Source: an uncultured archaeon (GTDB lineage: Archaea; Thermoplasmatota; Penumbrarchaeia; JASLWR01). Taken from it: a stretch of 64,000 nucleotides of DNA. The notes under the pieces are model-generated. The model was not told the origin of the DNA. It did no database searches and worked only from the letters and a program-made list of their open reading frames with translations. The DNA lies in assembly GCA_964342815.1 (NCBI GenBank), contig CAYFHS010000011.1:57938-121937 (forward strand). The letters run 5' to 3'. Of the stretch, positions 5,252 to 41,211 are shown piece by piece. The stretch's first letter is position 1, and each line of letters starts with the position of its first letter. Position numbers and translations under genes: made by a program.

Positions 5252-8200
5252 CTAACCCAACTCATCCATCAGGTCATCGAAATCTATCTCATCGGACGGT
5301 GGAGCTTCAGGTGGCGGAGGAGTGTCCGACGGTTCCGCTGCCGGTTCTTGTTCGATCGAAGTCGGCGGCGAGCTTTCTTCACCCCACTCATCCTCTCCGA
5401 TCTCATCCGCTTCTATTGAATTCTCGGTCATGTCGAACATTTCCTCCTCCAGTTCTTCCTCGAGAGCATCTGCCGGGTTTTCATCCACTTCACCCCAATC
5501 ACTTCCCGTGTCTCCCCCGGGTTTGTCCGTTGCTTCCTCGAAAACAAGCTCGGAACTTTCTTCGGGAATGTCCGGCTCCGCTTTCACTTCTGGTTCTTGT
5601 TCCGGGGGTTGGGCCATACCTTTCTCCACCGTTATTTCTTCCTTCACTTCCGGTTCCTCGAAAGCGTCCACAGGGATCTCTTCGATAATCTCGTTTCCCG
5701 GTGAATCCTCCTCCTTCGGTATTTTCACCGTCGTTTCATCATTTATCACTTCCCGGTCGGGTGAATCATCAGCCTGTGGGGCATGGTCCGCTTCTCCCGG
5801 CTCCTCCGTTTGGCTAACTTCACCCATTGGATATTCTGCCATTGGCATCATGGGCGGCTGCATGCCTTCCCAATATTTGTATTTCTTCTTTTTGTGCTTC
5901 TTCTTCATCTTCTTTCTTCTCTTATCGAAGAGGTCCTTCAACTTTATTGCCTCTCGGACGTCCACCACGCCGCCGTTTATCATGAGGTCCGCACGTGAAT
6001 CCCAGAAACGGTCGATCTCTTTACGAGTCTCGGCCGCTTCGATTCCGTTTTTCATAAAATGGTACCTGCGCCATTTCCAGAGCTGACCTAAAACCAGCAG
6101 ACCGATCAGTATCGGGCTCGACAATCCCAGCACTTCAAGGAAGTTAAAAATATATTTCGTAGGCAGTTTGTAGCTGAAAAGCTGGATCCAACCGCTTTCG
6201 GCGTCCTTCGGATACCTGTCGTCCTCGTCCGGGATCCCATCATTGTCATCGTCGGGGTCCGCATTATCGCCAGTGCCGTCCTTGTCGAAATCACCGGATT
6301 CCTGTGGGTCCTCGGAGAACAATAGCGACCGGTTCGTCCCGTAAGCGTCGAAGCTGTAACCTGCAGGTTCATCCATGTCCGGCACACCGTCGTTGTCATC
6401 GTCGCTGTCTTCATTATTACCAAGGCCGTCGCCATCCGTGTCCTTAGATTCGTTGGCATTGTACGGGAAGGCATCGAGATAATTTACTACCTCATCGCCA
6501 TCGATATCCTGGTCTGTGTTGTCACCCACTCCGTCGCCATCCGTGTCGATTATCTCCCGTGGATTCAGCGGGAAAAGATCCATGTCATCGGATATATTGT
6601 CATTGTCGTCATCCGTATCGGCATTGTCGCCCACGAGATCGCCGTCCGTATCCTGCCATTCGTTGGGATCGGTGGGGAACGGATCCGATGTGTCGGGAAT
6701 GAGATCATTGTCGTCATCTGTATCGTAGGAATCCGGGACCAGATCACCGTCCGTGTCCAGAGGTGTCGATAAGGAACTTGTGTAATCCGTCTTCTCCGCT
6801 ATCTCCAGGGCATCCGAATAACCGTCGTTGTCATCGTCTGTGTCGCTGTTGTCGCCTATTCCGTCGCCGTCATTGTCGGCCCATTCGTTCGGATTCTTCG
6901 GAAACGCGTCATTGATGTCACTGGTGTTATCGTTGTCGTCGTCGGTATCGGCGTTATCCCCTATTCCGTCGCCGTCGAAGTCCGACCGCTCGGTCCGGTC
7001 ATAGGGAAATGCGTCATCATCATTCAGAACCCCGTCGTTATCATTGTCGTTATCCAGTGTATCGGGAATTCCGTCACTGTCTGCATCCGGCGGCGTGGAA
7101 TTGCTGTCCAGGGGATCGTACCCCGCGCTGGTTTCCATAATATCGCTGATATTGTCGTTATCGTCGTCATCATCGCGGTTGTCACCCACTCCGTCACCGT
7201 CGAAATCCTCCCATTCGTAGGGATCGTCCACGAAGATATCGCTGTTATCGCCGTGCCCGTCATTGTCCGTATCGTTCCATTCGGTACCATCGAATGGGAA
7301 TGCGTCACCATTGTCCCCGTAACCGTCCTTATCACTGTCCATCCATTCATAGGGATTTTTCGGAAAACGGTCAGAATTATCGCCGTAACCGTCGCTGTCG
7401 GTATCTTTCCATTCGTTCCGATTCTGCGGGAATGCATCGCTGTTGTCCCCCACTCCATCGCCGTCGCTGTCCCTCCACTCGCCCGGATTATTCAAGAATT
7501 GGTCGCCATTATCGCCATGTCCATCACCATCGGTGTCGTTCCATTCGTTCTCGTCGAAAGGAAACGCATCCCCGTTGTCGCCGTATCCATCGCTATCGCT
7601 GTCCATCCACTCGTAGGGATTCGCAGGGAAAAGATCGCTATTGTCCCCGTGTCCATCGCTATCGCTGTCCCTCCATTCGTTGATGTCCTGGGGGAATGCA
7701 TCTCTGTTATCACCCACTCCATCCCCATCCGAATCCAGCCACTCGGTGGGATCCAGCGGGAAAACATCGCCGTTATCTCCATGTCCGTCACCGTCGGTGT
7801 CATTCCATTCACCACCATCGAAAGGGAATGCATCCCCGTTATCACCGTAACCATCGCTATCACTGTCCATCCATTCAAAGGGATTCGCTGGATACAGATC
7901 GCTGTTATCTCCATGTCCGTCGCTGTCTGTATCGTTCCACTCTGTGTTGTTGTACGGGAACATATCTCTGTTATTACCGTATCCGTCGTTATCGCTATCC
8001 ACCCATTCCAGGGGATCAACCGGGAAAACATCGGAATTATCTCCGTGTCCGTCGTAATCGGTGTCATTCCATTCGCTATTGTTGTAAGGGAACATGTCCC
8101 TGTTGTTACCGTATCCGTCGTTATCGCTGTCCACCCATTCCAGTGGGTCCGTCGGGAAAACATCGGCATTATCCCCATGTCCGTCGTAATCGGTATCATT

Positions 8201-10744
8201 CCACTCGGTGTTGTTATACGTGAACATGTCCCTGTTGTTACCGTAACCGTCACCATCACTGTCCACCCATTCAAGAGGATCATAGGGAAATTCGTCACCG
8301 GTTACCACGTTGTACTGGATTCCCCTTATAACAACCTTCGAGCCGGGAACGTTATCTCCAAAACCGTCCCCGTCCGAATCCCTCCACTGTGTCTTCTCTG
8401 ATGGAAATGCATCTGAGAACGTATCTCCGAAGAAATCACCGTCGGCATCCACATATTCCAACCGGTTCCATGGAAGCTCGTCGAAAAAGTCCCCGTATCC
8501 GTCCGAATCGCTATCCAGCCACTCTGTGGGATCTATTGGAAAATCGTCCTGGTCGTCTGCAAATCCATCGCTGTCCGAATCCTCCTGAAATATTCCCTCT
8601 CCCTGGTTGATCATAACGGTTATGGAATACTTGCCACCCACGGCTGAAAGGGTGGCGATATCCAGCTTCCCGTCGAAATCGACGTCAGCGAGCTGTATTT
8701 CCAAGGGCTCCTCGTTAACCGTATAGTCCGTTCGGGAGCCGAATGTCCCGTCACCCTTGTTAATGAATATACTTACCGTATCGTCCTCCTTGTTGGCGGT
8801 TACGATATCCGGGAATGTGTCTCCGTTCACGTCCCCCACGGCAACTGCGGAGGGATTGTTTCCGGTGGTATAAGTCCTTTTGTTATTAGCCCCAAATAGC
8901 CCCGCTGAATTGTAATAGACCTCCATATTGTTATTGGATTCGGATACACCAATTATCTCCGCACGGTTATCCCCCGTCAGATCGGACACGGCAAAGGCAT
9001 CTATGGCGATAGCATAATCATCACTCAGTGCGAGGCCGCCGGTTCCGTCCGCACGCCAAACCGTTATCCTTTTACCATTTGATACTACAACATCAGAAAA
9101 ACTGTTATCCGTAACGTCACCCACTTCGCTTCGCTCAGGACCTATTATGGTGGTGTGGTTGGAATTCCATACCGCCACACCGTTTACGGTATCATATACA
9201 CTTATATTGTCCTGCTCAGTGTTTACTACAACTATCCTGGCAGTTTCCTTGAGGTAGCTTAAATCGTTTGTTGAACCGTTCAGTACGAGATTGTTTGCGC
9301 TTGAGAAATTACCGAATCCCCCGTTGGGATATATCTTCAGTAGCTTCTGACCCTTTATCGTTATAATAATGTCATCTCCGTTCTTGGCATCGGTATTCCC
9401 CAATACCAGTGATGTCGGTACCCCCTGTGTGGCAATGTTCGTACGGTTTCCGAATAAACCCACAAAATTGTCCGTCTTTACTGTGATCTGAAGCCCGTTA
9501 GTCACAACGAGATTCAGCCCGAATGCAGCCATGTTCAGATCGGCAAAGGCGAATTTATTAGGTTTCTGTGTTAGAGCGAAATCCCTTCTACCCGTGAAGA
9601 AACTGCCCAAACCGTTGTTTGCCAGGATGGTGACGTACGGCGTACCGAAGGGATGAATGTTCCATGAACAGTAGTTAACTGTAACAACATCGATATCGGA
9701 ATCTGCATCCATATCCGCCACCTTGATATCCTTTGGAAACGTGCCCACAGGATAGTTTATGCTCTTTCGGAATTTCCCGTCCCCGTCATTATAAAGGACT
9801 GTGATAGTATGATCGTTTTCATTAGATGTCAATATGTCCATGTCCCCGTCAGCGTCGACGTCTCCAGCCGTTACAGAACTGGCTCCCCTTCCTACTAGGT
9901 TCTCGTTCCGAACAATCCCGTTTCCGTTGAATCTTAGGATGGTGACCCTATCGTTTCCGCAAGTGATTATGTCCCCCAACCGGTCCCCGTTGATATCTAC
10001 AATAGTAACGGAGTTGGGTTTGTTGGATGTTCTGAAATCAATCTTGGGGTTGAAACCACCAGCCCCGTTATTAAGCAGCATCGAGACCTTGCTGTCGTTC
10101 TTGTTGGCAGTGACAATATCGAGATGGCCATCGTTGTTGATATCTCCCACATCCACTCCCTGAGGGTTCTGCCCCACCCCTAACGGAATCGCACCTCCGA
10201 AAGCCCCGGCTCCGTTGTTCTTCAATATTGCTACCTGGCCGACCTCGTAGAGCGAAGCCACAATGTCTGGACCGTTATTCTTGTCCACGTCACCCACTGC
10301 AATCTTCCAGGGGGCTGCTCCAACCGCGTATTCCGTGTGGTTACCGAAGCCTCCCGAACCGTTATTAAGGAGAACGGACACCGAATCGTTGCCGGCATTG
10401 GCCACGGCAAGGTCCTCATACCCGTCGCCGTTGAGATCCGCCACAACGACGTACCGTGGATAATTACCAACCGAGTAATTGGTAACAGTCAGGCCGTTGC
10501 CTTTGTTCAAAAAAACTGATACATTGTGCAATTCGATGTTCGCAGTAACGATATCGGTGCCGTTACCCCGGTCGAAATCCCCGGTATCTACGGAAATTGC
10601 ACCTTCGCCGGTGTTGAACCACCCGGTGCTGCTGTCCACCTGTTCCCCGTCAACTTGATCGGGGACGATTGCCAGAATTCCAAGTAAGCTGTTCGCAACG
10701 AGAATAATCCAGATAAATATCGCTGTTGTTCTTTTCATTTCCAT
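5252..10744 (-). CDS. 1830-aa membrane-anchored surface protein: FG-GAP/VCBS repeats, thrombospondin type-3-like Ca-binding repeats, TM helix, charged disordered tail
   Basis: Signal peptide, repeated GD(L/V)NGDG..D(L/I)(A/V)VAN motifs, long run of DSDGDGxGDNxDxFP repeats, TM LGLSSPILIGLLVLGQLW, then KKKK and an E/P-rich tail. Confidence 0.9.
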   Translation of the reverse strand: MEMKRTTAIFIWIILVANSLLGILAIVPDQVDGEQVDSSTGWFNTGEGAISVDTGDFDRGNGTDIVTANIELHNVSVFLNKGNGLTVTNYSVGNYPRYVVVADLNGDGYEDLAVANAGNDSVSVLLNNGSGGFGNHTEYAVGAAPWKIAVGDVDKNNGPDIVASLYEVGQVAILKNNGAGAFGGAIPLGVGQNPQGVDVGDINNDGHLDIVTANKNDSKVSMLLNNGAGGFNPKIDFRTSNKPNSVTIVDINGDRLGDIITCGNDRVTILRFNGNGIVRNENLVGRGASSVTAGDVDADGDMDILTSNENDHTITVLYNDGDGKFRKSINYPVGTFPKDIKVADMDADSDIDVVTVNYCSWNIHPFGTPYVTILANNGLGSFFTGRRDFALTQKPNKFAFADLNMAAFGLNLVVTNGLQITVKTDNFVGLFGNRTNIATQGVPTSLVLGNTDAKNGDDIIITIKGQKLLKIYPNGGFGNFSSANNLVLNGSTNDLSYLKETARIVVVNTEQDNISVYDTVNGVAVWNSNHTTIIGPERSEVGDVTDNSFSDVVVSNGKRITVWRADGTGGLALSDDYAIAIDAFAVSDLTGDNRAEIIGVSESNNNMEVYYNSAGLFGANNKRTYTTGNNPSAVAVGDVNGDTFPDIVTANKEDDTVSIFINKGDGTFGSRTDYTVNEEPLEIQLADVDFDGKLDIATLSAVGGKYSITVMINQGEGIFQEDSDSDGFADDQDDFPIDPTEWLDSDSDGYGDFFDELPWNRLEYVDADGDFFGDTFSDAFPSEKTQWRDSDGDGFGDNVPGSKVVIRGIQYNVVTGDEFPYDPLEWVDSDGDGYGNNRDMFTYNNTEWNDTDYDGHGDNADVFPTDPLEWVDSDNDGYGNNRDMFPYNNSEWNDTDYDGHGDNSDVFPVDPLEWVDSDNDGYGNNRDMFPYNNTEWNDTDSDGHGDNSDLYPANPFEWMDSDSDGYGDNGDAFPFDGGEWNDTDGDGHGDNGDVFPLDPTEWLDSDGDGVGDNRDAFPQDINEWRDSDSDGHGDNSDLFPANPYEWMDSDSDGYGDNGDAFPFDENEWNDTDGDGHGDNGDQFLNNPGEWRDSDGDGVGDNSDAFPQNRNEWKDTDSDGYGDNSDRFPKNPYEWMDSDKDGYGDNGDAFPFDGTEWNDTDNDGHGDNSDIFVDDPYEWEDFDGDGVGDNRDDDDDNDNISDIMETSAGYDPLDSNSTPPDADSDGIPDTLDNDNDNDGVLNDDDAFPYDRTERSDFDGDGIGDNADTDDDNDNTSDINDAFPKNPNEWADNDGDGIGDNSDTDDDNDGYSDALEIAEKTDYTSSLSTPLDTDGDLVPDSYDTDDDNDLIPDTSDPFPTDPNEWQDTDGDLVGDNADTDDDNDNISDDMDLFPLNPREIIDTDGDGVGDNTDQDIDGDEVVNYLDAFPYNANESKDTDGDGLGNNEDSDDDNDGVPDMDEPAGYSFDAYGTNRSLLFSEDPQESGDFDKDGTGDNADPDDDNDGIPDEDDRYPKDAESGWIQLFSYKLPTKYIFNFLEVLGLSSPILIGLLVLGQLWKWRRYHFMKNGIEAAETRKEIDRFWDSRADLMINGGVVDVREAIKLKDLFDKRRKKMKKKHKKKKYKYWEGMQPPMMPMAEYPMGEVSQTEEPGEADHAPQADDSPDREVINDETTVKIPKEEDSPGNEIIEEIPVDAFEEPEVKEEITVEKGMAQPPEQEPEVKAEPDIPEESSELVFEEATDKPGGDTGSDWGEVDENPADALEEELEEEMFDMTENSIEADEIGEDEWGEESSPPTSIEQEPAAEPSDTPPPPEAPPSDEIDFDDLMDELG
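7190..8590 (-). repeat. Intragenic tandem 66-bp (22-aa) TSP3-like repeats with 132-bp and 264-bp higher-order periods
   Basis: GAACAT anchors at 7958/8090/8222 (132-bp period); GTCCATCCA anchors at 7337/7601/7865 (264-bp period). Confidence 0.9.
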
Positions 10745-28732: not shown

Positions 28733-29806
28733 TTATCTTACGTCCAAACGTATCTTTTTTACCGGGGCCAGTAGGGTTTCATCCAGGCAAATGCAGTGGA
28801 GCCCGAACCTTTTTGGAAATGGAATGAAACCTGCTTTGAGAAAGGGGATTGTGGAAAAATAACCCATTTTCGGAACAAGGGACAGTACAACTCCACTCTC
28901 CTTCGCCACGGCGATGGCAGTGAGAAGATTTTTCTTTATTCCTTCTTCTCCGTACAGCCAGTCGAACCAGGCAACCTTTACCGATTTTCTGGTCACCAGC
29001 GTTCGGACCTTGAAATGCATTACCGTAAGTAGTTTACCATTCAGAATGCGGCCCACCGTAAAGGAATCCGGATCGCCGAGTTCTCTGCGTAGTTCGTCAT
29101 GAGACCAAATGCGGTCCCACTTGAAGCAAGGGACGGAAAGGTACAGAATCCGAGAGACGTCCGAAGGACCGAGGACAGCATCATTGGGGTAGCTTGAAGG
29201 AATGGCGGATACGTTTTCGAGAGCCCTGTTAATGAGCGCTGTGATTCCACCTTTTTTGTTACTCAGAAACCCCATCTTCATCTTTTTTCCAACGAGTTTA
29301 CGAGCGGGAATATCATAGCCCACCCTTTCGGAAAAGGAATCCGGATCGATAATCTTTCCGAGCCAACTGCCGCTGTGTAATGGGAACATCCGGGGATAAC
29401 ATTTTTTATAGACCGAGCTCCCCATTCCCTCATCGTCGAAATACGGGAGGATTTTTTTTATTCCCACCCGCTGGTTCCGCTTCACGATCTCTCTTACAAG
29501 GATGGATGCGATATTTTTTCTACGGTATTCCGGCAGAACCGATAGATATGTGGGAATGGCCGTTTCCGATATCGTACCCAGAATATTAATTTTTCTCGGG
29601 AAGGATACGTTCACTCCTACCAGTTTACCTTTGGAATACGCTCCCAGCCATACGGACCCCTCCTCGTTTTCGAACTGCCTTTCCAATATCCCGGGCTCAT
29701 ACCGAAAATACCCGTCTTCACCGTAGTCGGCGGACCACGCCCGGTCCATCAACTGTGACACGGCCGCCATTTCATTTATTCGCAGAGCTCGCACATTTAT
29801 TTCCAC
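28733..29806 (-). CDS. Tandem-GNAT acyltransferase with N-myristoyltransferase-like architecture
   Basis: Motif A LSVLPEYRRKNIASILVREIVKR and a second GNAT half at the C-terminus. Likely start GTG 29806; the frame is open to TTG 29893 through the repeat unit. Confidence 0.75.
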   Translation of the reverse strand: MEINVRALRINEMAAVSQLMDRAWSADYGEDGYFRYEPGILERQFENEEGSVWLGAYSKGKLVGVNVSFPRKINILGTISETAIPTYLSVLPEYRRKNIASILVREIVKRNQRVGIKKILPYFDDEGMGSSVYKKCYPRMFPLHSGSWLGKIIDPDSFSERVGYDIPARKLVGKKMKMGFLSNKKGGITALINRALENVSAIPSSYPNDAVLGPSDVSRILYLSVPCFKWDRIWSHDELRRELGDPDSFTVGRILNGKLLTVMHFKVRTLVTRKSVKVAWFDWLYGEEGIKKNLLTAIAVAKESGVVLSLVPKMGYFSTIPFLKAGFIPFPKRFGLHCICLDETLLAPVKKIRLDVR

Positions 29807-29845
29807 AAGGCAAGGGAACCGAAGATAACGATTTATATTTTTCCA

Positions 29846-30244
29846 GGAATTGTCATGTAAAGGTGACCCATGCTGGCTCACCAAACTTGTCAAAACGGTC
29901 CAGGTATTCCCGTCTTTACACGTAAAGTCAGGAACATTTGGACTGACTTCTTGGTAAAGTTGAGCCAGAATGGATCGGCTTTACACGTAAAGGCGACCCA
30001 CACTGGCTCCCGACGCAATATCGAAGATACTGCTAGGGGTGCGTAGCAATCACTATTGCGAGCATTAGCAGAACTCGTTCTGCAATATCGGAGAAACTTG
30101 TTTCTCCACCACCTGTCGGTACGCAAGTACCGAAGGAGCAGGAGCATACTAATGCTCTGGAGCCCGTAGATTTCATCTTGAAATTGAGGGATCAGGGCAA
30201 TCTCTGATTGTCCAGAGTGAAACGGGCTCGCCAAACTTGCAAAG
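29846..30244. ncRNA. Candidate structured ncRNA or non-autonomous palindromic element (repeat family 2, composite locus)
   Basis: Four consecutive closed stems plus internal hairpins (one with a GCAA tetraloop), built around family-2 units in both orientations; no credible CDS. Confidence 0.5.
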
Positions 30245-30282
30245 TAGTGACTTTACAAGAAAACTTTATTAGCCTCAATGGA

Positions 30283-31320
30283 ATGGTCTTCTCAATGAGC
30301 CGTGTACCACGCAAGGTACGGTTAAAACTGCTGGATGAATACGGGTATGTCCCTGTTGCGAGAGCCATGGCCAGCGATGAACTCACTCATTTTTCACTGA
30401 CCGGGGTGAAAGGATTTCTGGGATATCTGGAAAAAGGCGGTTCCTTTCTCGTACCGGGCGAACCCTTATGTGACGTGAGCGACGCCAAAGACCTATTTTC
30501 GGAATTTATCGATCATTCATCGACCCAAAAGAGAAAGATTTGCTTTTTCGGCTGTTCCGAAAGGTTGAGCGGGTCCGCAAGATCCGCTGGCTATGCGGTG
30601 ATAAAGTTCGGCGAGGAGGCAGTTGTTGATATTTCCGGATTTTCTCTCCAGGGGAACGCAATGGAGAATGTCCGAAGAGGATTCAACCATGCCAATAATG
30701 TGGGAATATTGGTTTCTGAGTATATTCCGGAACGTAAAAGAGATCCGCTGATGGAAAACGAATTTCATCTGATATCGGATGAATGGCTCAAGGACAAAAA
30801 AACCCCGGAGCTAGGTTTTCTGCTGGCCCCTATGGAGCTTAACCGGCTTGAGGGACGCAGGATATTTACCGCACGGACAAAGAACCGAATTGAGGGATTC
30901 GTCATTCTCGATCCAGTAAGATCCAGGGAAGGATGGTATACCGATATCATGCGCAGGAGGCGAGACGCACCCAACGGTGTCAATGAAAAACTTTTGGTGG
31001 AAATTATAAAAAATCTGGATGGCGAGGGCGCAAAGAATCTCTTTTTAGGAATGGTTCCGTTCATTGGATTGGACCCGCAAATACGGGAACATGGGAAAGC
31101 GACGAAATTGATGAATTCCCTCAAGGGCCGGATCGATTTTCTTTACCCCATTGAATCCGAATTCTTCTTCAAGGATAAATTCCGACCGCGTTGGGAAGAT
31201 GTGTTTATCTATGTTTATCCCAAACTTACGACCAAGATGATTTACGGTATAATAAGCGCTTTCCTGCAGGGCGGATTTGTTCGTCTGATTAAACACCGTG
31301 TAAGAACGTTGGGAAAATAA
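30283..31320 (+). CDS. Stand-alone DUF2156 / MprF-LysX C-terminal aminoacyl-tRNA-dependent transferase domain
   Basis: VPGEPLC, ICFFG, KFGEEAVVD..FSLQGNAMENVRRGFNHA, GWYTDIMRRRRDAPNGVNEKL, LFLGMVPF, FFKDKFRPRWE..F. No N-terminal flippase TM domain. Start 30283 or 30295 (track: 30208). Confidence 0.85.
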   Translation: MVFSMSRVPRKVRLKLLDEYGYVPVARAMASDELTHFSLTGVKGFLGYLEKGGSFLVPGEPLCDVSDAKDLFSEFIDHSSTQKRKICFFGCSERLSGSARSAGYAVIKFGEEAVVDISGFSLQGNAMENVRRGFNHANNVGILVSEYIPERKRDPLMENEFHLISDEWLKDKKTPELGFLLAPMELNRLEGRRIFTARTKNRIEGFVILDPVRSREGWYTDIMRRRRDAPNGVNEKLLVEIIKNLDGEGAKNLFLGMVPFIGLDPQIREHGKATKLMNSLKGRIDFLYPIESEFFFKDKFRPRWEDVFIYVYPKLTTKMIYGIISAFLQGGFVRLIKHRVRTLGK

Positions 31321-37799: not shown

Positions 37800-37845
37800 A
37801 CGTCTTGATGGACAAGCTGTTGAATGCCATGGTGTAATATAATCT

Positions 37846-38126
37846 TTGGATCGGGCTTGCGCCGACCCTGGAGGCAAGCCTCCTTCCACATCATTATTGT
37901 TTTTGGTTCGGGCTTGCGCCCATTGCATTCCGTTGCACGCTTCGCTATGATGCATTGGAAATGCATCTGCATCCTCGGGATGCTACCCTACGGATGCATC
38001 AAAGATGCAACTGCGTCCTCGGCAAGTGCCCACTACGTTCCGCAACACTTACGGCGTTGCTGCATCCTCGGGACTACCGTCCCTACGGATATGCCTGCGG
38101 ACGTTTGCTGGAGCTCGCAAGCCCTC
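37846..38126 (+). repeat. Palindromic repeat family 1, long form with twin hairpins and a ~200-nt structured interior
   Basis: TCGGGCTTGCG...CGCAAGCCCTC termini; upstream GGAGGCAAGCCTCC hairpin; internal repeat TGCATCCTCGGGA...CCCTACGGAT twice. Confidence 0.75.
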
Positions 38127-40482: not shown

Positions 40483-41211
40483 TCAATTCTCCAGTATAGG
40501 TGACCCATTCTGGCTCACCATACTTTCAAGCGGGAGCTTTTCAAGTCTAAGCACACCTTTTCGCAGTATCAGGGTTCGGTCCACGTACTGCTTCAACCGG
40601 GGGTTGTGTGATACGATGAGGAAGGTCATACCCAGATCGTGCTGGAGCTTGTTCATCAGCTTCATGACCTTTCCTTCCCGATCCTCGTCAAGGTTTCCGG
40701 TGGGCTCGTCTGCCAGCACAATGGCCGGCTCCTTTGCCAGGGCACGGGATATAGCCACCCTCTGCTGTTCGCCCCCTGACAGTTCCTGAGGGAAGTTATT
40801 TATCTTGTCGCCAAGACCCACCAACTTCATGTACTTCATTGCCCTCTTCCGGACCTCCGCCTTGTCCTTGATAAGATTCTCAAGTCCCAGCTCCACGTTC
40901 TCGAGGGCCGTGAGGGTTGGTATCAAGTTATAGAACTGGAAGATGAAGCCTACGTGGTCCCGCCTGAATCCAAGGAGGGACTTGTTATGCATTTTCATCA
41001 GGTCCTGGCCTGAAACCTCCACTTCCCCGGTGTCTGACTTGTCGATCCCTCCCAGAATATTGAGAAGGGTGGTCTTGCCGCTTCCCGAAGGCCCCATGAC
41101 CATTACCATCTCTCCCTTTTTTAGCTTTAGGTCCAGTCCTTTAAGCACTTTGGTGGTCTCGCTTCCGGTCTTGTAGCTCTTATGCAGGTCGGAAATTTCT
41201 ACCGTTTTCAT
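40483..41211 (-). CDS. ABC transporter ATP-binding protein, LolD/MacB family
   Basis: GPSGSGKTT, GFIFQFYNLIP, LSGGEQQRVAISRAL, ADEPTGNLD, VSHN. Start set at ATG 41211 behind GAGGTGA. Confidence 0.93.
   Translation of the reverse strand: MKTVEISDLHKSYKTGSETTKVLKGLDLKLKKGEMVMVMGPSGSGKTTLLNILGGIDKSDTGEVEVSGQDLMKMHNKSLLGFRRDHVGFIFQFYNLIPTLTALENVELGLENLIKDKAEVRKRAMKYMKLVGLGDKINNFPQELSGGEQQRVAISRALAKEPAIVLADEPTGNLDEDREGKVMKLMNKLQHDLGMTFLIVSHNPRLKQYVDRTLILRKGVLRLEKLPLESMVSQNGSPILEN
40494..40529 (-). repeat. Palindromic repeat family 2 unit forming the last codons of the ATPase gene
   Basis: TTGAAAGTATGGTGAGCCAGAATGGGTCACCTATAC versus TTGACAAGTTTGGTGAGCCAGCATGGGTCACCTTTAC (29893-29857): three substitutions and one indel. 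Confidence 0.8.

Follow-up and report, generated by a model that had tools for sequence, protein, structure and literature searches.

The PATEs of Haloquadratum walsbyi carry no transposase gene. They have near-terminal palindromes, generate no target duplication, occur also as "terminal-only" forms of about 52 bp, and can lose their cores through deletions mediated by repeats (PMC3119063). A second kind of repeat in the same species, the small mobile repeat SMR-A, is found preferentially inside the PATE palindromes, and its mobilisation has been called "enigmatic" (PMC3119063). In Bacteria, the GTAG-tagged REPs, together with BIMEs and REPINs, are known with RAYT transposases (PMC3733652, PMC2817692, PMC3116915). 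In the survey of GTAG REPs, the phyla listed are all bacterial, and the elements are linked to RAYTs (PMC3733652). A third point of reference is the single-strand transposition of IS200/IS605 elements of the IS608 type, as summarised in PMC3119063 and PMC6006769. The literature searched offered no description of such repeats in Thermoplasmatota.

Here, the starting point is a stretch of 64,000 nucleotides (the window) from an uncultured archaeon of that phylum. Within the window, positions 29846-30244 had been singled out from the sequence alone as a densely structured non-coding element between two divergent transferase genes. The original prediction offered two interpretations. The element might be a novel non-coding RNA or cis-regulator; alternatively, it might be a non-autonomous element whose excision leaves a short hairpin. 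The reading favoured here, with a probability of about 0.7, is that positions 29856-30258 are a composite insertion of selfish, non-coding hairpin repeats, which probably moved as single-stranded DNA.

Three assemblies recur in what follows. G000 is the window's own (4.35 Mb in 116 contigs, 89% complete), with the window lying on its contig C11. G001 belongs to the same genus, and G003 to another genus of the same family.

The insertion and its empty sites

The features that frame the insertion are these:

29806, minus strand: probable GTG start of a GNAT/NMT-like gene, the left neighbour
29831-29855: conserved left spacer, with 24 of 26 bases in common with the orthologous spacer of G003
29832-29838: left TATA-like run, about 29 nt from the GTG start at 29806
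29850-29854: insertion target TTGTC, within the left spacer
30259-30297, plus strand: conserved right spacer; in the empty site of G003 its counterpart follows on from the left spacer without a break
30265-30271: right TATA-like run, about 27 nt before the ATG at 30295
30283 or 30295, plus strand: candidate ATG of a stand-alone DUF2156 (LPG_synthase_C) gene, the right neighbour

G003 has an orthologous divergent pair, with amino acid identities of 41% for the GNAT-like protein and 54% for the DUF2156 protein. There, the start codons are about 93 nt apart, and the spacer between them (L010:1405-1497) is uninterrupted and, in the part listed above, near-identical to the window's. This spacer is probably a compact, conserved bidirectional promoter region. 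It aligns with the window up to 29854/55 and then again from 30259. The best excision relative to G003 is 29856-30258 (403 nt), the removal of which restores colinearity. Comparison with the empty site leaves no more than 1 nt of ambiguity at the junction, which in turn means that no target was duplicated.

The insertion thus stands immediately 3' of TTGTC, between both TATA-like runs. These runs are presumed to be core promoters, the left one on the strength of its spacing only. Each keeps a suitable distance to its own gene, which suggests that both promoters survived the insertion.

A second empty site is provided by the cargo that the insertion carries (see below). A full-length copy of this cargo composite, 97.7% identical to the window's, lies at C14:64040, where it fills a gap of 288 nt. 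At the same place G001 has 44 nt between flanks that are 81-87% identical, and no modules are present at the orthologous site in either G001 or G003.

The window holds further repeat regions. One is a second hairpin string at 37840-38100, which includes two complete modules of the GTAG double-hairpin type described below:

37930-38000, minus strand: complete GTAG double-hairpin module
38023-38095, minus strand: complete GTAG double-hairpin module

The G003 ortholog of the region 37930-38095, with an 84% identical flank, has no modules. Another, at 6825-8282, lies inside an apparent coding region, where sequences of 132 and 264 nt recur in tandem (69-76% matches); it probably encodes a repeat-domain surface protein.

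A 65-nt unit with cargo at a fixed point

When the 399-nt stretch was used as a query against G000, 74 BLAST matches were obtained. Iterated nhmmer searches of the same assembly delivered 83 hits to a unit of 65 nt, 41 of them full length. Many of the units are arrayed head to tail at intervals of 65 nt, and many are found where contigs end. Each has two hairpins between inverted termini that read GTAAAG...CTTTAC. In hairpin 1, a variable, covarying stem stands beneath a conserved loop of 11 nt. The window's insertion contains three units:

29856-29920, plus strand: unit 1, empty, type A (nhmmer hit C11:87793-87856), with its hairpin at 29862-29882 and the family loop at 29867-29877
29921-29985, minus strand: unit 2, empty, type B, which is the most frequent (full-length nhmmer hit C11:87923-87858 at 74.5 bits)
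29986-30258, plus strand: unit 3, cargo-bearing
29986-30009, plus strand: left arm of unit 3, as far as the fixed cargo point, which follows 30009; an identical arm precedes the cargo in 13 units
30230-30258, plus strand: right arm of unit 3, ending TTTAC(A); a matching right arm is present in the copies on C6, C18 and C4

The 5' flanks of the units read TTnWC, being TTTAC within arrays and TTGTC at three sites, the window's among them. Their 3' ends read TTTAC, and no target duplication is seen at units. Otherwise, the pattern of the left arm was found only in one MAG titled "uncultured archaeon". Elsewhere in the window, at 40496-40560 (C11:98433), there is a solitary, degenerate type-A unit that has kept the conserved loop while its right half is altered.

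In 13 units the cargo starts directly after the conserved loop and stops just before the returning stem. Because the nesting point is identical in all of these, the split hairpin that brackets the interior in the window is a general property of the unit family. The pentamer that flanks the cargo, GGCTC or GGCAC, follows the type of the host unit, and at least five distinct types of cargo occupy the fixed point. The idea of a non-autonomous element whose excision leaves a short hairpin was, in its essence, right: the interior of 220 nt occupies a single, constant position within a 65-nt unit, and empty units are common.

Nine units of the 65-nt type share a further, near-identical internal hairpin segment after the conserved loop. 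These sites, all in G000, are C1:297005, C2:32647, C4:150396, C8:104156, C12:24026, C20:32492, C27:71, C36:44439 and C60:6269. They seem to form a homogeneous composite subfamily that spread as one piece.

The interior of unit 3 (30010-30229) is itself repeated in the genome, with shorter or longer versions on C16, C18, C6, C61 and C32. The copies differ by whole hairpins or modules. That on C18 has lost the part between two 13-nt direct repeats, those on C16 and C32 have an additional segment of 63 nt, and that on C6 begins four modules later. Within one string, modules may occur in either relative orientation. In the window, the cargo is made up as follows, the scores being those of a covariance model, R1, of the GTAG double-hairpin module:

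30009-30111, plus strand: cargo modules M1-M4, with hairpins at 30015-30033, 30045-30059, 30068-30083 and 30090-30107
30106-30156, plus strand: partial GTAG module, with GTAG mutated to GTCG and without the 3' purine-rich strand (15.7 bits, E 0.006, a weak match)
30157-30232, plus strand: complete GTAG double-hairpin module (77.6 bits, E 1.7e-22)
30166-30169: GTAG of the complete module
30170-30184: its hairpin 1
30185-30187: its TGA
30195-30213: its hairpin 2
30214-30225: its conserved 12-nt strand

The share of the GTAG family in the window's cargo is the last 1.7 modules; where the partial module has GTCG, other copies read GTAG. For M1-M4, nine aligned homologous copies from G000 and G001 show compensatory changes in the stems and loop indels of 2 nt. 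Loop indels of 1, 2 and 4 nt, together with whole-module differences between copies, exclude a coding function. A 114-aa open reading frame on the minus strand (29890-30234) is spurious, as no reading frame is kept between copies.

The folding of the stretch may now be considered in the light of these repeats. All stems of the original prediction exist in the window (29962-29968/30003-30009, 30014-30020/30054-30060, 30060-30068/30149-30157 and 30160-30167/30222-30229, plus three enclosed hairpins). So do the short hairpin at 29862-29882 and its split copy, 29992-29996/30228-30232, with one compensatory pair, as well as the GGCTC duplication at either end of the 220-nt interior. The long hairpin at 29962-30009 arises because unit 2 is inverted relative to its neighbours.

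Folding was compared with that of dinucleotide shuffles, which it exceeds by a wide margin. As RNA, 29846-30244 reaches -151.6 kcal/mol, against -110.9 +/- 6.1 kcal/mol in the shuffles (z -6.6); for the minus strand z is -8.1, and no shuffle reached the value of either strand. As single-stranded DNA, sub-elements also out-fold their shuffles; the complete module 30157-30232, for example, gives z -3.7.

The three long-range stems that had been read as domains fare less evenly. All three are present here, but 30014/30054 and 30060/30149 are not kept in homologous copies, which have local hairpins in their place. The stem 30160-30167/30222-30229 holds up only in part. With the help of G.U pairs, most copies can form the five inner base pairs; the three outer ones are open in 12, 8 and 6 of the 15 copies examined. 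The conserved structure of the cargo is a row of local hairpins.

A comparison with Rfam gave no match at gathering score anywhere in the 64-kb window. Ranked by E-value, the region 29700-30400 gave miRNA-type chance hits only (E 0.5-9, 15-18 bits against cut-offs of 50-94). The possibility raised at the outset that the stretch would turn out to match Rfam or a known IS end came to nothing, and the possibility that it has no homologs was turned into its opposite, homologs being very numerous.

The GTAG double-hairpin module and its possible readings

The module is about 75 nt long. It has a 3-bp stem, YCY/RGR, and an asymmetric GUA/GA internal loop that has GTAG on its 5' side and YGA on its 3' side. 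This loop is, presumably, akin to a bulged-G or loop-E motif; a kink-turn reading was rejected on inspection, since its register leaves hairpin 1 unpaired. The layout is completed by variable hairpin 1, a 3-bp closing helix (P3) enclosing one A, variable hairpin 2, and a conserved, purine-rich strand of 12 nt.

Perfect YCY-GTAG-hairpin-YGA-RGR sites number 42, against 2-10 in scrambled controls. In an alignment of 15 copies, paired cells make up 94.5%, and both sides vary in 17 of the 21 pairs. The covariation score was reached by none of 500 shuffles, and sliding the partners lowers pairing to 28-51%. Because hairpin 2 and P3 played no part in the selection of copies, they provide an independent test of covariation.

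The model R1 finds at least 141 copies in G000, at least 129 in G001 and at least 128 in G003, all lower bounds, with 130-150 of some 1,200-1,500 candidates per genome scored. Elsewhere in the class, it finds 2 copies in G002 and between 0 and 2 in each of 33 other genomes searched. The family is, then, very abundant and lineage-restricted. A strict pattern of the module gave 0 hits in metagenomes; a looser one gave 17 contigs, 8 of which have true modules, and marine metagenome contigs are among the carriers.

The two strands of the module are not equivalent. Of 107 distinct copies, 99 fold more stably on the GTAG strand than on the complement; the mean difference is 4.2 kcal/mol (Wilcoxon p 1e-17), and G.T pairs outnumber A.C pairs by 11 to 2. 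This bias in stability, together with the excess of G.T pairs, means that one strand has been selected to fold.

Modules also form dimers, 12 of them head-to-head, 4 tail-to-tail and 16 direct. They use the classes of intergenic region roughly as these are available. Between genes that run in the same direction, 27 modules are sense and 27 antisense, and neither a TATA-like box at a fixed distance upstream nor an oligo-T run downstream was seen. A comparison of the 5' flank with the module's own 3' end gives an excess of identity (38 of 107, against 14.7 expected) that is confounded by subfamilies with longer common flanks, and so does not fix the ends of the module.

An enzyme that might mobilise these elements was sought in several ways. 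G000 yielded no Y1 transposase (PF01797) and no TnpB (PF07282), and a tblastn-type search of it with a relative's TnpA gave, at best, E 0.02. G001 and G003 do have Y1 proteins, which match the IS200 equivalog at 99-115 bits; against the NCBIfam model for RAYTs they score 22-26 bits, where the cut-off is 80. These are ordinary IS200-type copies with hairpins unlike those of the units or modules. No modules flank the relatives' Y1 genes, and no REPtron was found. Over 37 genomes, the presence of Y1 does not track the abundance of modules; G014, for example, has 15 Y1 matches and 0 modules.

The IS200-type transposase genes of the relatives (163 aa, NF033573), at L034 (G003:C1) and L035 (G001:C158), come with end hairpins of their own. 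Both copies have TTTAC before the left end and TTTAC at the right end, a pentamer common to the target and the 3' end of the units. G000 itself has almost no multi-copy protein genes. Its largest multi-copy family has 8 members of about 165 aa with only a weak winged-helix hit in Pfam (L108:796-1293, that is G000:C11:46595-47092, plus seven paralogues), and one member ends 33 nt before a 65-nt unit. As a candidate transposase the family was rejected, for it bears no transposase signature.

It is conceivable, if somewhat doubtful, that the double hairpin represents a novel class of element in archaea, either one mobilised by a family of enzymes so far not connected with hairpin repeats or an abundant structured RNA. 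This suggestion draws on the GUA/GA loop, on the placing of hairpin 2 inside a covarying closing helix, on the 12-nt strand and on folding of one strand. It draws also on the presence of well over 100 copies in each of three genomes that have no common pattern of Y1 or RAYT transposases.

Another proposal is that modules are functional structured RNAs (protein-binding RNAs or decoys, for example) transcribed from many loci, with the 400-nt stretch as one multi-module RNA. Against this, the orientation of the modules relative to neighbouring genes is even, the TATA-like box and the oligo-T run are missing, both orientations occur inside one string, and strings gain and lose modules. Their positions, moreover, are not conserved between genera or species, and Rfam has no match. 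The structural evidence is, of course, what an RNA would show as well, namely strong covariation, conserved unpaired GTAG and YGA, a conserved 12-nt purine-rich strand, stable tetraloops, and a recurring GUA/GA loop that resembles the bulged-G type. Strand-specific folding with many G.U pairs likewise fits RNA equally, as G.U or as G.T. On balance, a structured RNA is unlikely.

Much less likely still are folded single-strand sites of the attC kind, recognised by a tyrosine recombinase and left over from a cassette system. One locus does look like a small cassette bounded by repeats. On C4 of G000 (L082, G000:C4:130800-132700), where a transposase between the two inverted modules had been considered and rejected, the segment holds a HicB-like/HicA toxin-antitoxin pair instead, exactly between modules that are 824 nt apart:

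L082, 468-544, plus strand: GTAG module
L082, 755-988 and 960-1211: open reading frames of the HicBA pair
L082, 1368-1444, minus strand: GTAG module

Structure kept while sequence varies, and folding of one strand, would likewise suit attC-like sites. Most modules, however, are single or in gene-free strings rather than at the borders of cassettes, inspection of the copies by eye showed no R''/R' box of the GTTRRRY type, and the scatter of over 120 copies in each genome does not resemble a cassette array.

Least credible of all is a role specific to this locus, in which the block would serve the divergent GNAT-like and DUF2156 genes as a cis-regulator, leader or insulator. The block does occupy the very space that separates the two presumed core promoters. 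In G003, however, the orthologous pair does without it, and every part of the block is a dispersed repeat that also occurs in unrelated contexts. An archaeal bulge-helix-bulge intron, in which two 3-nt bulges and a 4-bp helix between them would span both junctions of the insert, was also rejected, by inspection: the insert begins with bases that pair with its own end and not with the downstream flank, so that the junctions 30003-30016 and 30220-30236 cannot form that structure. Thus, the idea of a novel RNA or cis-regulator belonging to this locus did not survive, since the stretch is multi-copy and absent from the G003 spacer, and since the modules have no promoter, terminator or bias in orientation to genes.

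Proposed movement of the elements and comparison with known systems

Under the preferred reading, a composite insertion of selfish repeats, the history of the locus might run as follows. A 65-nt mini-element with GTAAAG/CTTTAC ends would have inserted just 3' of TTGTC, between the divergent core promoters and without target duplication. Further copies of the unit would then have stacked onto the palindromic ends of the first, one in each orientation. One unit carries the string of small hairpin modules, nested at the fixed point in hairpin 1, and the same composite is present elsewhere in the genome. The elements would spread as folded single-stranded DNA, as mini-elements derived from IS200/IS605 and REPs do, and would be mobilised in trans by an enzyme absent from this assembly. 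The single-strand style of IS200/IS605 is suggested by the TTnWC flanks, the TTTAC ends, the tandem and inverted stacking on palindromic ends, and the lack of duplications. At this locus, the elements would have no dedicated function.

The negative searches for a mobilising enzyme run counter to this proposal, and so does the orientation of the modules. A mechanism acting at replication forks predicts that orientation is linked to GC skew or gene strand, and the modules show no association with either, although the test is weak in a fragmented archaeal assembly whose skew mostly mirrors the coding strand (rho 0.82).

For the locus itself the result is deflationary, in that no new regulatory RNA lies between the two transferase genes. 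For annotators there is a warning: what looks like an "ornate" intergenic structure in these genomes is a mosaic of repeats. The clear cases of filled and empty sites, on the other hand, make a concrete system for asking how hairpin repeats without a transposase move in archaea.

Such layouts have precedents. The BOX elements of Streptococcus pneumoniae are strongly folded intergenic repeats with fixed end modules and a variable number of internal modules. They are bacterial, consist of other modules and have no GTAG tag, and the resemblance to the window's repeats is one of layout only.

With IS200/IS605 elements the repeats described here have several features in common: a pair of subterminal hairpins, a position 3' of a short specific oligonucleotide, a lack of target duplication, and one strand that folds. 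They differ in that the sequences of the hairpins, and the spacing from hairpin to end, are unlike those of the relatives' IS copies, and in that G000 has no Y1 gene and Y1 no phyletic link to the repeats.

The likeness of the modules to the GTAG REPs is closer. Both have an unpaired GTAG 5' of a short palindromic hairpin, covarying stems and frequent G.T pairs. Both are present in at least 100 copies, mostly intergenic, with clusters and head-to-head dimers. The modules also have a conserved 3-nt tail beyond the hairpin, as in the GTAG-1 and GTAG-2 families. Here, however, the host is an archaeon and the module is bipartite, with hairpin 2 in a closing helix and a conserved 12-nt strand. A RAYT gene flanked by REPs, typical of the bacterial elements, is not present. 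An element similar to REPs, but bipartite, fills the intergenic DNA of an uncultured marine archaeal clade in which no RAYT-type enzyme was found.

By analogy, the closest archaeal precedent would be the PATEs and SMR-A of H. walsbyi, with the 65-nt unit in the role of the PATE and the hairpin-module cargo in that of SMR-A. The likeness drawn here is one of layout. The units have the near-terminal palindromes of PATEs, no duplication, and insertion beside a short conserved oligonucleotide. They differ from PATEs in having inverted termini of 6-8 bp, and G000 holds no IS605-type parent with matching ends, while the IS200 copies of the relatives share only TTTAC. The nested material, for its part, is a variable string of hairpin modules where SMR-A is one element of about 110 bp. 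The cargo nevertheless has a constant place inside another mini-element, which recalls the way SMR-A attack PATEs. The stretch is, then, best read as archaeal hairpin repeats, similar in kind to REP/BIME and PATE/SMR, that form a nested insertion.
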